Under the pieces are notes generated by a model. That model was not told the origin of the DNA. It searched no databases and saw only the letters and a list, made by a program, of their open reading frames with translations. Shown here one piece after another: positions 6,894 to 10,813 of a DNA stretch of 26,034 bases. A program made the position numbers and the translations under genes. Where the stretch lies: positions 1-26,034 of the forward strand of contig CAYSIM010000001.1 of NCBI GenBank assembly GCA_964431165.1, read 5' to 3'. Positions within the stretch are counted from its first letter, which is position 1; each line of letters starts with the position of its first letter. This DNA is from an uncultured Thermoplasmatales archaeon. Its GTDB lineage: Archaea > Thermoplasmatota > Thermoplasmata > Thermoplasmatales > ARK-15.

Positions 6894-7669
6894 TCAGCGA
6901 TTTTTCCTAGGCCAGTAGTCATAGAATATGACGGCAGCAGCTATTAATGCCAGTGTAATGAAAAGATAAACATAGCTCATGGTGGGTATGTCCCCTGTCT
7001 GACCAGCAAGAATGAGTTTTATGTCTCCAAGCCATGGTATCCATCCTGTGGCAAGACCATAGACCATCCCCATTGTAACAGGTCTAGGGGCAATGCCCAC
7101 ATTCTGATCAGCAGCATAGTAGGCTACGTCTGGATATATAACATTTGGATCCATGAATTGTGAATTGGCAAGATTGTTATCACCCATGGTGATGAATCCA
7201 TCCTCACCAATGAATTTTGAAAGGTCAACAACGAGATTCTTGTGTGAAAAACCTACATTTAATATTACAACTTTATAACCCAGTATTTCAAGCCAGTTTC
7301 CAGCCTTATATGGAAAAATGGACCGTTCCATGAAACGTAGAACATGGCCCTATGTATTACAGGCACAGAATTTGGATATGGAAGGTAAAGGATTACATCA
7401 CCATAATCACCATATGAAACATGGTTAATTTCCCTTCCTTCAACATAGGTTATTATACTGCTAACGTTCGTCACCTTCTTTGGTATGACAATATCCCCCG
7501 TGTTAATAACACCCCATGTAAAATCGCTACCATGCTGCATTGATGATGATTCGATTATTGTCATCGGTGGCCATATACCTGAGTAGGCGTAAAGTGCAAG
7601 GAATACAATAAGAACTGCAGCTACTGCAATACCCAGGCTCTTCAATGTTTCTTTTACTTCCTTCTGCAT
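6894..7669 (-). pseudogene. Signal peptidase I (S26, archaeal Ser/His type) split by a -1 frameshift; may be an assembly error
   Basis: ORF 7265-7669 has an N-terminal TM, IESSSMQH (catalytic Ser), GDVI and VIHRA (His). ORF 6894-7331 has FITMGDNN and a C-terminal TM. Adding one base between ~7349 and 7268 gives a single 258-aa protein. Confidence 0.85.
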
Positions 7670-7735
7670 ACTAGATTATAAAGGAATGCATTCTTAATAT
7701 TTTTTCTGATTTTTTTATCACATCTTTGCTTTTAA

Positions 7736-8206
7736 GACATCTTTCTAAAGCTAAAGGATAGAAAAGTGAATAGTGAGTGTGAGAAATATTTTAATACAAG
7801 AAAAAACATAGAATATAATGTATGAGAATAGATGCAGATTTGATTAAGGAAGATAGGAAAAAGGTGAAGCAACGGGCAGATAAACGAAGATTAAAGATAA
7901 CAAGGGCTTATGCAGTATTAATAAGGAAGGCTCTGGAGTATGAAAATTCAAAAGGTAATTAAGTGCGAAATAATCGGTCCAACGAGAATGAAAGAAAGGA
8001 TATTCAAATGCGGAGTATTTGGATTGAAATATAATAGATATTTTAACGGGGCAGTTAATATAGGAAACAGGCTCTCTGGCTATATGCTGAAGGCCAGAAG
8101 AAGTGGACCTGCGAACTCCCCCAGCGAACAATATCCCGAAAGGGAACATAATGGCAATTCAGTATTCGAGGGGAGAAGCTCCATCGGTAAAGGTGGGGTA
8201 GTTCAC
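7736..8206 (+). mobile_element. Non-autonomous, internally deleted IS200/IS605-family (tnpB-only, IS1341-like) element; left boundary tentative
   Basis: Right end GAAGCTCCATCGGTAAAGGTGGGGTAGTTCAC (8175-8206) matches the family's subterminal hairpin plus TCAC end. A tnpB remnant lies inside. Candidate TAM TTTAA 7731-7735 is followed by an imperfect hairpin at 7739-7764. Confidence 0.8.
7822..7962 (+). CDS. Small ribbon-helix-helix-like protein (46 aa) upstream of tnpB; below the ORF-track cutoff
   Basis: MRIDADLIKEDRKKVKQRADKRRLKITRAYAVLIRKALEYENSKGN, a strand-helix-helix pattern. Overlaps the tnpB start by 23 nt. TATA-like TTTTAATA 7789-7796 sits about 25 nt upstream. Confidence 0.6.
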   Translation: MRIDADLIKEDRKKVKQRADKRRLKITRAYAVLIRKALEYENSKGN

Positions 8207-8221
8207 TATTTCCTATCATGA
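7940..8221 (+). pseudogene. tnpB: TnpB remnant: N-terminus fused in frame to a degenerate C-terminal zinc-ribbon/RuvC-III segment
   Basis: MKIQKVIKCEIIG resembles archaeal TnpB N-termini. IFKCGVFGLKYNRYFNGAVNIGNR is a decayed FxCxxCG...NRDxNAAxNI motif (second Cys lost, catalytic Asp now Tyr). The frame reads through the right end. Confidence 0.78.
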
Positions 8222-8226
8222 TAGCT
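8103..8226 (+). ncRNA. TnpB omega RNA (reRNA) scaffold 8103-8206 plus putative flanking guide from 8207; 5' end approximate
   Basis: Hand-checked pairings: pseudoknot GUGGAC 8103-8108/GUUCAC 8201-8206; CUCCCC 8116-8121/GGGGAG 8170-8175; CGAA 8125-8128/UUCG 8165-8168; UCCC-GAAA-GGGA 8134-8145; terminal 8-bp stem 8178-8185/8192-8199 with G-U pairs. Confidence 0.72.
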
Positions 8227-8231
8227 TTAAA

Positions 8232-10559
8232 ATGTGGAAAATCGCATATTTAATCATTGCATTGCTGCTCATCTCATTGAATTTCCATGTTACGGATACG
8301 GGAGATTCAAATAGTATTATTATTGGTTATTCTGGAAATCCTTCCAATTTAATTTCTTTTTTATCATCCATGGGCATATCCTATTTTCATCTGGGAAATT
8401 ATTATCTTCTCTATGGAAACACCTGTAATTTCTTTTTTAACATTCCTTTACAAATATCCAAAGATATATTCTTTATTAGAGAACCTGTAAAGGTCAAGCC
8501 TTTTATTGAGTATTCTTCTGACCCATACACCATAAATGATATTATTTCAGCCTATGGCATCTCCAATCTCAAGGGTAAGGGTGAAAATTTCACAGGTATT
8601 GTCCTAGTTCCATACGGGGATCCATATATTTACAGAAATTTAAATTACTTTGATTCAAGATTCGGAATAGGTAATGCCAACATTTCCGTTTATTATTTTC
8701 CCTCACCACCAAAGGATTTTCCCTCCTCATGGGTTTCTGAAACGGACCTCGATGTGGAAGTACTTCACGCCACTGCACCTGAAGCTAAAATTTTATTGTT
8801 TGTTACAAAGGATGATAACGTTTCCACACTTGAAATGGCATTGAAATATATAGTCGATAATAAACTGGGTGATGTTGTTTCAATGAGCTGGGGAGGTCCA
8901 GAACTTCAGGTTTATGATTCTTTCTTTCACGAGACCATAAAGGAAGCTGCTGAAAAGGGTATAACGTTGATAGCATCTTCTGGTGACACAGGTGATGTGT
9001 ATTATCCTGCCTCCGACCCTTATGTACTTTCAGTCGGAGGTACTTCCCTTGTTACTTCAAATGGAAAATATTCCTATGAGTATGTATGGAAGAATAGCGG
9101 TGGTGGTATTAGTTCAATTTTTAAGGAACCACTATGGCAGATTCCAGAAGTGAGGCTTGAGGGGCGGGGTGTGCCCGATTTATCGTTGGATGCGGATCCT
9201 GACACTGGTGTTTTCATATATTCCAACGGTATAGTAGGTATGGGAGGTACTAGCCTCTCTGCGCCTCTTCTTGCTGGGATGCTTTTAGATGTCGATTCCA
9301 TAAAGGGTTATTCCCTTGGTTTTATTACACCACAGCTTTACTATTTACATGAAAATTATAAAAATTATTTTCATCCAATTCTCTACAACAACACCTTTTC
9401 ATTTTCCTGGGAAGTAAAAACTGGTCTGGGAAGTCCTATTATTGATAACTGGTCCTTCCCATATTCCTATTTCGGTGCATCTGTTTTCCTTGGCAATTTC
9501 ACAAATGCCGATGTGGTTCAGTTCAGCATAAGAGGCATAAAAGAGGAGAGTTTCCATATTGATGATTCTTTTTCATTCTTTGCTCTGCTGAAAGGTAATG
9601 AAAATGTTAGTATTGGCTATAAAATACCTGAGGGAAAATTTTTCTATTCCTGGCCCAATGGGACGGTTTATTTTGGAAATGTTAATAAAGGTTTTCTCTA
9701 CAATCTAAAAATATTCATAAAAAATTCAACAATTATTTTGGATGGTGTGTCCTACAAAATGCCATTTTTCCCGGGTAATTTTTCACTTTATGCCTATTCC
9801 CTGGCAGGGGGTAATGAGAGCTATTATACCAATCTGGGTCCCGCAGAGTTCAGGAATTTCATCGTTATTTCTGGAGGTATACCAAAATATCCTGAGAAAA
9901 TCATTTCCGTGGAGAATAAAAAAAGCATTTACGGTGCAATGGAAATTCCATTCATATACAACGACTTCCTCATTGGCAAGGTAGATGGATATGCTGAAAA
10001 AAATCTCTGGCCTGGTAATTTTTCATATACAAAGGTTCATAATTTCATTCTAGGCAGAAATTCCATTCCTAATTTCCCATGGATTGTAGGAACAGGGAGA
10101 GCGAACGATCCATACATAATATCAGGTTTTGATATCTCTGGGTACGTTGCAATTCTTATAAATATATCAGGCGAAATTGTGTTCAAAAATATAAGGGTCT
10201 CTGGAATTTTTGGCATTGTGGATCACGGCAATAATTCAATATATATCATTAATTCAAGTTTTAGCAATTTACTTGGCATACAGTGCATTTCATGTAAGCT
10301 CATCATCGAGAATTCTACATTCTTTACAATTTTTTCAATATACTCTTTATTTTCTAGCATTTCCCTTGAAAAAGACACATTCTATTCCCTTGCAGGCATT
10401 TTTCCTCTTTTTGGATCTGTCTCCATGCAATCTACCTGGATAATATCACCCATTCCTTTTCTAACAAATTATTTCATTGGTGTACCTAATTATTTATTCA
10501 TATCCATTTGGTTTTTAATAATCTTTTTCATACTTATTCTCAGAAAAAAGAAAAAATAA
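8232..10559 (+). CDS. Secreted, membrane-anchored S53 (sedolisin/kumamolisin-like) peptidase with a long C-terminal extension
   Basis: Signal peptide; ETDLD (catalytic Glu/Asp); ASSGDTG (oxyanion Asp); GGTSLSAP (Ser); TGLGSP; GTGRANDPYII and beta-helix-like repeats; C-terminal TM followed by RKKKK. Confidence 0.88.
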   Translation: MWKIAYLIIALLLISLNFHVTDTGDSNSIIIGYSGNPSNLISFLSSMGISYFHLGNYYLLYGNTCNFFFNIPLQISKDIFFIREPVKVKPFIEYSSDPYTINDIISAYGISNLKGKGENFTGIVLVPYGDPYIYRNLNYFDSRFGIGNANISVYYFPSPPKDFPSSWVSETDLDVEVLHATAPEAKILLFVTKDDNVSTLEMALKYIVDNKLGDVVSMSWGGPELQVYDSFFHETIKEAAEKGITLIASSGDTGDVYYPASDPYVLSVGGTSLVTSNGKYSYEYVWKNSGGGISSIFKEPLWQIPEVRLEGRGVPDLSLDADPDTGVFIYSNGIVGMGGTSLSAPLLAGMLLDVDSIKGYSLGFITPQLYYLHENYKNYFHPILYNNTFSFSWEVKTGLGSPIIDNWSFPYSYFGASVFLGNFTNADVVQFSIRGIKEESFHIDDSFSFFALLKGNENVSIGYKIPEGKFFYSWPNGTVYFGNVNKGFLYNLKIFIKNSTIILDGVSYKMPFFPGNFSLYAYSLAGGNESYYTNLGPAEFRNFIVISGGIPKYPEKIISVENKKSIYGAMEIPFIYNDFLIGKVDGYAEKNLWPGNFSYTKVHNFILGRNSIPNFPWIVGTGRANDPYIISGFDISGYVAILINISGEIVFKNIRVSGIFGIVDHGNNSIYIINSSFSNLLGIQCISCKLIIENSTFFTIFSIYSLFSSISLEKDTFYSLAGIFPLFGSVSMQSTWIISPIPFLTNYFIGVPNYLFISIWFLIIFFILILRKKKK

Positions 10560-10718: not shown

Positions 10719-10813
10719 CCCGGCTTAGCTCAGTGGTAGAGCGGCGGACTGTAGTGGGAAAAAATTCCGCCGCGGACATCCGCATGTCCCCGGTTCGAAT
10801 CCGGGAGCCGGGA
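10719..10813 (+). tRNA. tRNA-Tyr(GUA) with a 23-nt intron (10755-10777) at canonical position 37/38
   Basis: Acceptor CCCGGCT/AGCCGGG with C1-G72 and discriminator A; D arm GCTC/GAGC; anticodon stem GCGGA/TCCGC; GTA at 10751-10753; T arm CCCGG-TTCGAAT-CCGGG; bulge-helix-bulge can form; CCA not encoded. Confidence 0.96.

Follow-up and report, generated by a model that had tools for sequence, protein, structure and literature searches.

Is an omega-RNA scaffold that can still fold beside a ruined tnpB gene a guide RNA kept for use in trans, or is it what remains of a decaying transposon? The question is raised by positions 7709 to 8206 of the window, by which we mean the whole stretch of DNA under analysis (26,034 nucleotides, the first 26 kb of contig C1 of G000, an archaeal metagenome-assembled genome of 1.14 Mb in 138 contigs that is 82% complete). 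The runs that contain this stretch are DNA runs from one hot-spring metagenome study, and no RNA run is listed for it. A first-pass annotation had described a structurally intact omega-RNA scaffold next to a dead TnpB and had suggested that it might serve as a trans-acting guide RNA. The proposed identity was borne out, in that the locus corresponds to the right end of a TnpB element of the IS200/IS605 type, codes for an omega-RNA and lies beside a gutted tnpB. As for its role, our analysis leads us, with good confidence, to regard it as a decaying right-end and omega-RNA remnant of that element, i.e. as an ordinary fossil.

The element lies on the plus strand, like all features given below unless stated otherwise, between a signal-peptidase gene (minus strand, start at 7669) and the gene for a 775-aa peptidase (plus strand, start at 8232). 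Two small frames occupy the interval between these genes, one of 46 codons (7822-7962) and one of 93 codons (7940-8221). The element measures 498 bp (7709-8206) and would represent a non-autonomous, internally deleted (PATE/MITE-like) derivative of an archaeal TnpB-only element of the IS200/IS605 type. Indeed, both of its ends are homologous to those of relatives, the coding part between them carries an internal deletion, and the same deletion is found in more than one copy, on C1 and on C6. On the left, it shares homology with the sequence that precedes the intact tnpB genes of L076 and L042, as far back as a TTTAT; on the right, its homology extends to the corresponding ends of 51 relatives.

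TTTAT or TTxAT adjoins the start of the left-end homology in L076, in L042 and in a second subfamily; in the window, TTTAT stands at 7704-7708, directly 5' of the left end. In the congener G004, the same two genes are separated by an uninterrupted 87-nt spacer, which reads ...TTTTTAT|ATTG... at the corresponding place. Because the left-end alignments and the G004 spacer motif agree, we placed the element at 7709-8206, after TTTAT; the window and G004 flanks are only ~70% identical, and the exact insertion junction is presumptive. Judging from these alignments, the element appears to have inserted 3' of TTTAT, between the signal-peptidase and peptidase genes, and TTTAT is likely its target or transposon-adjacent motif (TAM). 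The left end itself (7709-7821), as aligned with L076 and L042, contains a degenerate subterminal hairpin (~7733-7758), at whose equivalent place both relatives carry 8-bp hairpins, and an A/T-rich, TATA-like box (~7786-7795).

The right end at 8206, which had already been proposed as the transposon end, is supported twice: the similarity of the three in-genome copies stops exactly after GTTCAC, and more than 40 related elements from other archaea all terminate in TAGTTCAC. A guide would, as the first reading also had it, derive from the flank at 8207 onward. By its position relative to the right end, the would-be guide segment covers 8207-8226 and sits 5-25 nt upstream of the peptidase start codon (8232). 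The element thereby comes within 25 nt of the peptidase start, at an A/T-rich spot of what is probably the promoter in the congener (window 8200-8232; L093 ~1914-1999), and transcription of the peptidase gene may by now rely on read-through from the element.

The 93-codon frame (7940-8221) is the tnpB remnant, as indicated by alignment with full-length relatives, tblastn, a motif scan and a weak match to Pfam PF07282. Its first ~20 codons (MKIQKVIKC...) are joined directly to the final ~55 codons of a TnpB of ~394 aa, with ~300 codons missing, and its C-terminal part corresponds to the zinc-ribbon and RuvC-III segment of a TnpB clade whose full-length members have 377-404 aa. The RuvC-III catalytic aspartate is replaced by tyrosine (codon 8039-8041), and a frameshift interrupts the remnant at 8111/8112. 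The same site reads NRY or NGY in all three in-genome copies, whereas an aspartate (NRD, NAD, NTD) is found there in 72 of the 72 motif-bearing database homologues. In the clade as a whole (alignment A1, proteins P0002-P0040), an invariant IVFGD occupies the place where most TnpBs carry the RuvC-II glutamate (I..E.L), and the RuvC-II acidic residue of this clade may be an aspartate or may have been relocated.

Directly upstream of tnpB, and overlapping its start, a 46-aa open reading frame (ORF) with a ribbon-helix-helix-like pattern is present both in the window (7822-7962) and in the intact L076 (1383-1523). It was not retained as a member of the ribbon-helix-helix family, since Pfam gave no match. 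A similar small ORF precedes tnpB in L041, and other subfamilies have none. By a hand count from the translations (not computed), about 9 of the 10 differences between the C1 and C6 versions of the ORF change a residue, which suggests relaxed constraint here.

To what extent the scaffold is preserved can only be judged against a family. Starting from an open, though partial, TnpB in the related G015, we collected 80 homologues (377-404 aa) and also 62 loci, the hosts of the loci being Thermoplasmatota, Asgard archaea, Bathyarchaeia, Wukongarchaeota, Archaeoglobus and Alkanophaga. A covariance model, R1, was built from 38 right ends, and 51 right ends were then realigned to it; they align over ~146 positions and end in the same terminal sequence as above. 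The R1 structure comprises S1, a stem of 10 bp; P2, a hairpin whose loop carries GUGAAC; a pseudoknot between this P2 loop and the terminal GUUCAC; P3, of 7 bp; P5, a GAAA-capped hairpin of 4 bp; and P6, a terminal hairpin of 6-8 bp. RNAalifold on a MAFFT alignment missed P5 and the full P2 and cannot represent a pseudoknot; these three parts were added by hand and then checked after realignment to R1. An inner extension of P3 (~8123-8129 with 8160-8167 in the window) was dropped, as it showed no consistent pairing among relatives.

The structure is well supported by covariation. Positions assigned as partners were paired in 90.3% of cells, compared with 44-55% when partners were slid by 1-3 columns, double-sided changes occurred in 26 of the 33 R1 pairs, and the observed values were reached by 0 of 500 shuffles. 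The pseudoknot is fully paired (6/6) in 48 of the 51 relatives and comes in compensatory variants (GUGACC/GGUCAC, AUGGCC/GGUCAU and UUGACA/UGUCAA), and S1 is 98% paired, with double changes at all 10 of its pairs. P2 was poorly caught in a single register (61% paired) because its length varies among subfamilies, and the P2 counts given for relatives are underestimates. In L076, tnpB ends with its stop codon 5 nt short of the end of the element, and the scaffold overlaps the last ~47 codons. No matching family was found in Rfam 15, either at gathering thresholds or with E values up to 10 over 7600-8400. R1 is therefore a by-product of some use, if a modest one: a covariation-supported omega-RNA model, pseudoknot included, with no Rfam counterpart, for a widespread clade of archaeal TnpBs.

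Two variants of the family were seen along the way. The Asgard subfamily (L030, L031, L038, L057) has an insertion of ~30 nt in the P2 loop of the omega-RNA, which also adds ~10 residues to the C-terminal tail of TnpB. Within G000, contig C46 (6485-6567; L091 1501-1583) holds a solitary right-end remnant of a different subfamily, with 25.7 bits in R1 and no adjoining tnpB, in which a perfect 8-bp, GAAA-capped P6 hairpin is followed by UAGUUCA.

In the window, R1 matches over its full length (8066-8206; model positions 1-146, 111.6 bits, E ~1e-26). This is more than the other two copies score (C6, 88.5 bits; C42, 85.1 bits) and within the 70-165 bits spanned by relatives from other lineages, but 33-53 bits lower than the nearest intact relatives, L021, L027, L062 and L076 (145-165 bits). 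The deficit has its counterpart in the helices, not all of which can form. S1 (8071-8080 with 8086-8095) keeps 8 of 10 pairs, the mismatches being C8072/C8094 and C8076/A8090, and this is below the minimum of the 52 relatives, in which S1 keeps 9-10 pairs. P2 (8097-8112), the hairpin whose loop carries the 5' pseudoknot strand, is reduced to 2 of 6 pairs: its 5' strand is deleted and a CC is absent from the 3' strand at 8111/8112, whereas the nearest relatives with a CUGCCC 3' strand form 6 of 6. The remaining helices are better off. The pseudoknot GUGGAC/GUUCAC (8103-8108 with 8201-8206) forms 6 of 6 pairs, one of them G-U, and its GUGGAC strand recurs in 4 relatives; P3 (8116-8122 with 8168 and 8170-8175, A8169 bulged) forms 7 of 7 and encloses P5 (8134-8145), the GAAA-capped hairpin, with 4 of 4; and the terminal hairpin P6 (8179-8185 with 8192-8198), which includes G-U pairs, forms 5 of the 6 model pairs. 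If a Y1 transposase recognizes a hairpin at the right end, P6 is, by its position, the most likely one.

The first-pass annotation had named four helices, and all four can form where it placed them, as judged from the sequence and from the minimum free energy (MFE) structure of 8103-8206. As regards membership of a family, the pseudoknot, the GAAA hairpin, P6 and the outer part of what it had called the long stem (8116-8121/8170-8175) covary across the 51 elements. This outer part, of six pairs, belongs to P3; the inner part, CGAA at 8125-8128 with UUCG at 8165-8168, is specific to this copy and has no support in the family. Its description of the scaffold as structurally intact holds for the 3' two-thirds, which can form, but the scaffold starts at 8066, 37 nt further upstream than it had been taken to, and the additional part contains the damaged S1 and P2.

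Thermodynamic folding by itself fails to separate the region from shuffled sequence and was not used as evidence of function. The MFE of 8066-8206 is -43.9 kcal/mol (z score, -1.57), compared with -69.0 kcal/mol (z score, -4.44) for L076 and -51.6 kcal/mol (z score, -2.84) for L021; other spans of the window gave z scores of -0.83 (8080-8230) and -1.86 (8103-8206).

Whether the preserved helices reflect selection was assessed with the two other copies in G000. The copy at C6:20366-20818 is 86-88% identical to the window copy and has the same internal deletion. From 7990 on, the copy at C42:6870-7088 shows 88% identity; in front of it stands a longer tnpB remnant, frameshifted and truncated at its 5' end. 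A run of N adjoins the left end of the C6 copy (left of 20818), whose left junction and TAM are unreadable. Divergence between C1 and C6 amounts to 30% in the left end (7741-7821), the most diverged segment, 8.5% in the small ORF (7822-7939), 7.4% in the tnpB remnant (7940-8065) and 15.4% in the 3' part of the RNA (8103-8206).

We polarized the changes with C42 and four outgroups. Over the 141 nt of the RNA region, the window lineage had acquired five substitutions and a deletion of 2 nt, and about three substitutions (8012, 8019 and 8044; read from the three-copy alignment) in 76 nt of the adjacent tnpB remnant, so that, as far as these alignments tell, the two rates are similar. When five random substitutions were placed on the inferred ancestor in a neutral simulation, all 30 ancestral pairs were retained in 19-29% of runs; the retention of pairs in the window is therefore unremarkable. 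C6 lost 7 and C42 lost 4 of the 30 ancestral pairs, both above the neutral mean for their numbers of changes. Overall, the three copies gave no signal of purifying selection on base pairs relative to the flanking pseudogene.

The three copies also share defects. The S1 mismatches and the loss of P2 are common to all of them, as is the tyrosine at the RuvC-III site, and they therefore go back to a single progenitor, whose nuclease was already dead and whose 5' scaffold was already damaged. Since these shared defects are found at three separate loci, the progenitor was copied after acquiring them, and since C1 and C6 share the internal deletion, the deletion derivative was copied at least once more.

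A guide RNA used in trans needs a protein, and we searched for one. With a full-length clade member as query, tblastn on the 82%-complete G000 returned only the three decayed copies and a protein on C86 with 24% identity, and thus no cognate TnpB. On C86 (L004 24-1851), a serine recombinase with a MerR helix-turn-helix (202 aa) is followed by an overlapping, intact TnpB of 432 aa, which appears, from its sequence, to keep candidate D, E and D catalytic motifs. Because this TnpB adjoins a serine recombinase, the C86 element is of the IS607 type; a search with R1 found no omega-RNA of the present family on C86. Further candidate partners were rejected: among the matches to PF07282 or PF01385, that on C39 resembles a zinc-ribbon ribosomal protein by sequence (not checked against a family library), and those on C75, C111 and C78 are broken-down pieces of TnpBs of other types. 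The Y1 transposase domain (PF01797) was not found in G000; 7 of 15 genomes from the same family encode it, among them G015 with 10 matches.

Targets for the would-be guide were equally scarce. With up to 3 mismatches allowed, the 20-nt flank TATTTCCTATCATGATAGCT occurs nowhere else in the genome, and no TTTAT-adjacent match to the guide occurs in the genome within 4 mismatches over 16 nt. The exact guide 20-mer found no match in viral contigs, nor did the element in a plasmid collection. The sole exact match to the 12-nt seed (C8:20309) is preceded by TTTAA rather than TTTAT and diverges after the 12 nt, and we treated it as a chance match. At its own locus, the DNA that matches the guide is preceded by the element end and not by a TAM, as expected of a homing guide.

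Taken together, we propose the following history. The element at 7709-8206 would be a derivative of a TnpB-only element whose right-end part (8066-8206), which overlaps the last ~47 tnpB codons in intact relatives, would encode the omega-RNA scaffold, with the guide read from 8207. The progenitor of the three copies would have lost its RuvC-III aspartate and part of the 5' scaffold before it was copied, presumably by a Y1 transposase that acted in trans and needed the ends alone; this transposase is deduced rather than observed. Since then, the copies would have drifted neutrally. The window copy would be well folded in its 3' two-thirds for the reason that it received only ~5 substitutions there, by chance none of them pair-breaking, and not because it was maintained as a guide RNA. 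Both its mobilization in trans and its present lack of function are what we infer from the shared defects, the decay and the searches described above.

Several observations nevertheless weigh against a fossil. The pseudoknot, P3, P5 and P6 can all still form in the window copy, in a family-like manner, and both substitutions that the window lineage acquired at paired positions (8106 A>G and 8180 C>U) keep a wobble pair. The damage to S1 need not abolish function, because the ISDra2 omega-RNA is dispensable 5' of position -116 (PMC10097598). A transcript through the scaffold is predicted and likely, because a plausible promoter and an open small ORF have been kept. The cognate TnpB could be missing from the assembly, which is 82% complete and of a kind in which repeated insertion sequence copies often go unassembled, and weak selection could go undetected with three copies and few substitutions. 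One rival explanation is an orphan omega-RNA loaded by a cognate TnpB encoded elsewhere, be it in the unassembled fifth of the genome or in a co-resident element. Such a TnpB would cut the empty donor site (TTTAT followed by the guide) and thereby shield the element from loss, as proposed for PATEs (Meers et al. 2023, PMC10055086), where the concept is stated. The R1 score of 111.6 bits, within the range of relatives from other lineages, and the retained promoter-like box and left end agree with it. We nevertheless consider it distinctly unlikely. No cognate TnpB was found, and no Y1 transposase either, so that there would be no excision to guard against; P2, which corresponds by position to stem 1 of ISDra2 and thus falls inside the minimal scaffold, is largely lost; and there is no excess of conservation, with the sister copies decaying. 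A further version, in which the window RNA is transcribed from its own promoter and loaded in trans by an unassembled TnpB of the clade, whether active or nuclease-dead, seems to us highly unlikely; if true, it would mean an archaeal element without a protein that keeps only its guide RNA, as a homing guard or as a regulator beside the peptidase promoter.

That the protein was nuclease-dead by the time of copying could also be read as exaptation, the change from aspartate to tyrosine then marking a lineage turned into a DNA-binding repressor, for which the RNA would be the guide, as with TldR-like regulators. The loss of the aspartate and the remodeled 5' scaffold are indeed common to the three copies, which spread after nuclease death, and exapted TnpB regulators exist in bacteria. 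Yet no open frame of the clade survives, C1 and C6 being without ~300 codons and C42 being 5' truncated and frameshifted; a tyrosine occupies the site in 0 of 72 motif-bearing database homologues; and the only match to the guide is its own flank, where a TAM is lacking. This explanation can hardly be right. The stretch could, finally, persist for reasons other than a guide, namely as cis-acting DNA (a Y1 substrate consisting of right-end hairpin and terminus) or as the leader of the peptidase mRNA with read-through from the element promoter. Two copies with the same internal deletion, i.e. a miniature element copied after its tnpB was gutted, would fit the former, as would the fact that Y1 transposases are common in the related G015 (10 matches), which also has intact members of the element family, and insertion within 25 nt of the peptidase start, at the A/T-rich promoter region of the congener, would fit the latter. 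However, G000 has no detectable Y1 transposase, and the left end is the most diverged part (30%), and we regard persistence on either ground as unlikely. We therefore return to the decaying remnant. The first-pass annotation had itself offered decay without selection as an alternative to an orphan guide, and this alternative fits the data. Of the outcomes that it had named as speaking against a guide kept for trans use, one, stems no better conserved than the neighboring pseudogene, is what we found, alongside sister copies that are losing helices and a guide with no second target; another, a genome with no intact TnpB-family protein, applies to cognate TnpBs but not to the unrelated IS607-type TnpB on C86, which is intact.

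Two observations in the rest of the window concern other genes. The signal-peptidase gene (6894-7669, minus strand) is spread over two overlapping frames, 7265-7669 (134 aa) and 6894-7331 (145 aa), whereas its counterpart in the congener G004 is a single frame of 262 aa (L093 1125-1913); the two-frame gene is the product of a frameshift, a pseudogene or an assembly error. At 10719-10813, a tRNA match extends over 95 nt, against 71 positions in the model (61 bits), which points to an archaeal tRNA with an intron.

How does this element compare with systems already known? TldR proteins are reportedly nuclease-dead, TnpB-derived, RNA-guided transcription factors, which are said to be intact and to use guides that match promoters. 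The present locus is like them in that a RuvC catalytic residue was lost in a TnpB lineage with a guide-RNA region; it is unlike them in that the protein in the window is gutted, no copy has escaped truncation or frameshift, and the flank itself is the guide's sole match. Within the archaea, haloarchaeal sotRNAs of IS1341-type tnpB genes were reportedly found from expression data by Gomes-Filho et al. in 2015. Like the predicted window RNA, these archaeal transcripts overlap the 3' end of tnpB-only elements. Their clade and their sequence family differ from those of the window element, and they are known from expression, whereas the window RNA is predicted from sequence.

The best-described omega-RNA is that of the TnpB of ISDra2 (Karvelis et al. 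2021, PMC8612924; Nakagawa et al. 2023, PMC10097598). As in the present family, its sequence lies in the right end of the element and extends over the 3' end of tnpB, with a scaffold of ~116-140 nt followed by a flank-derived guide. The pseudoknot is also similarly placed, pairing positions -5 to -3 with -103 to -105 in ISDra2 (PMC10097598) and -6 to -1 with -104 to -99 in the window. Unlike ISDra2, however, with which it shares no detectable sequence similarity, the window copy is archaeal and has neither a protein nor an undamaged 5' scaffold.

The closest parallel is offered by PATEs and other MITE-like, non-autonomous IS200/IS605 derivatives that encode omega-RNAs, for which the need for a TnpB in trans has been stated (Meers et al. 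2023, PMC10055086). The trans-acting concept is thus already in the literature; for the window copy it is unsupported. Unlike PATEs, the window element keeps a small open frame and ~75 tnpB codons, only two copies share its deletion, and no transposase was found in G000. If the trans-acting reading were nonetheless true, the locus would show that orphan guide RNAs, to date no more than a postulate in the case of PATEs, exist in nature, here in an archaeon. The fossil itself is of little importance, being one more non-autonomous IS200/IS605-type remnant. What it offers is a clear case of copying after the loss of the TnpB catalytic aspartate and after the gutting of tnpB, in line with the idea that such elements spread by means of a transposase acting in trans rather than through a nuclease of their own. 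In its build, it is indeed much like a PATE: it is short, multicopy and without a working mobility protein gene, it keeps both ends of its family, it appears to sit after a short conserved motif, and it has retained its omega-RNA region.

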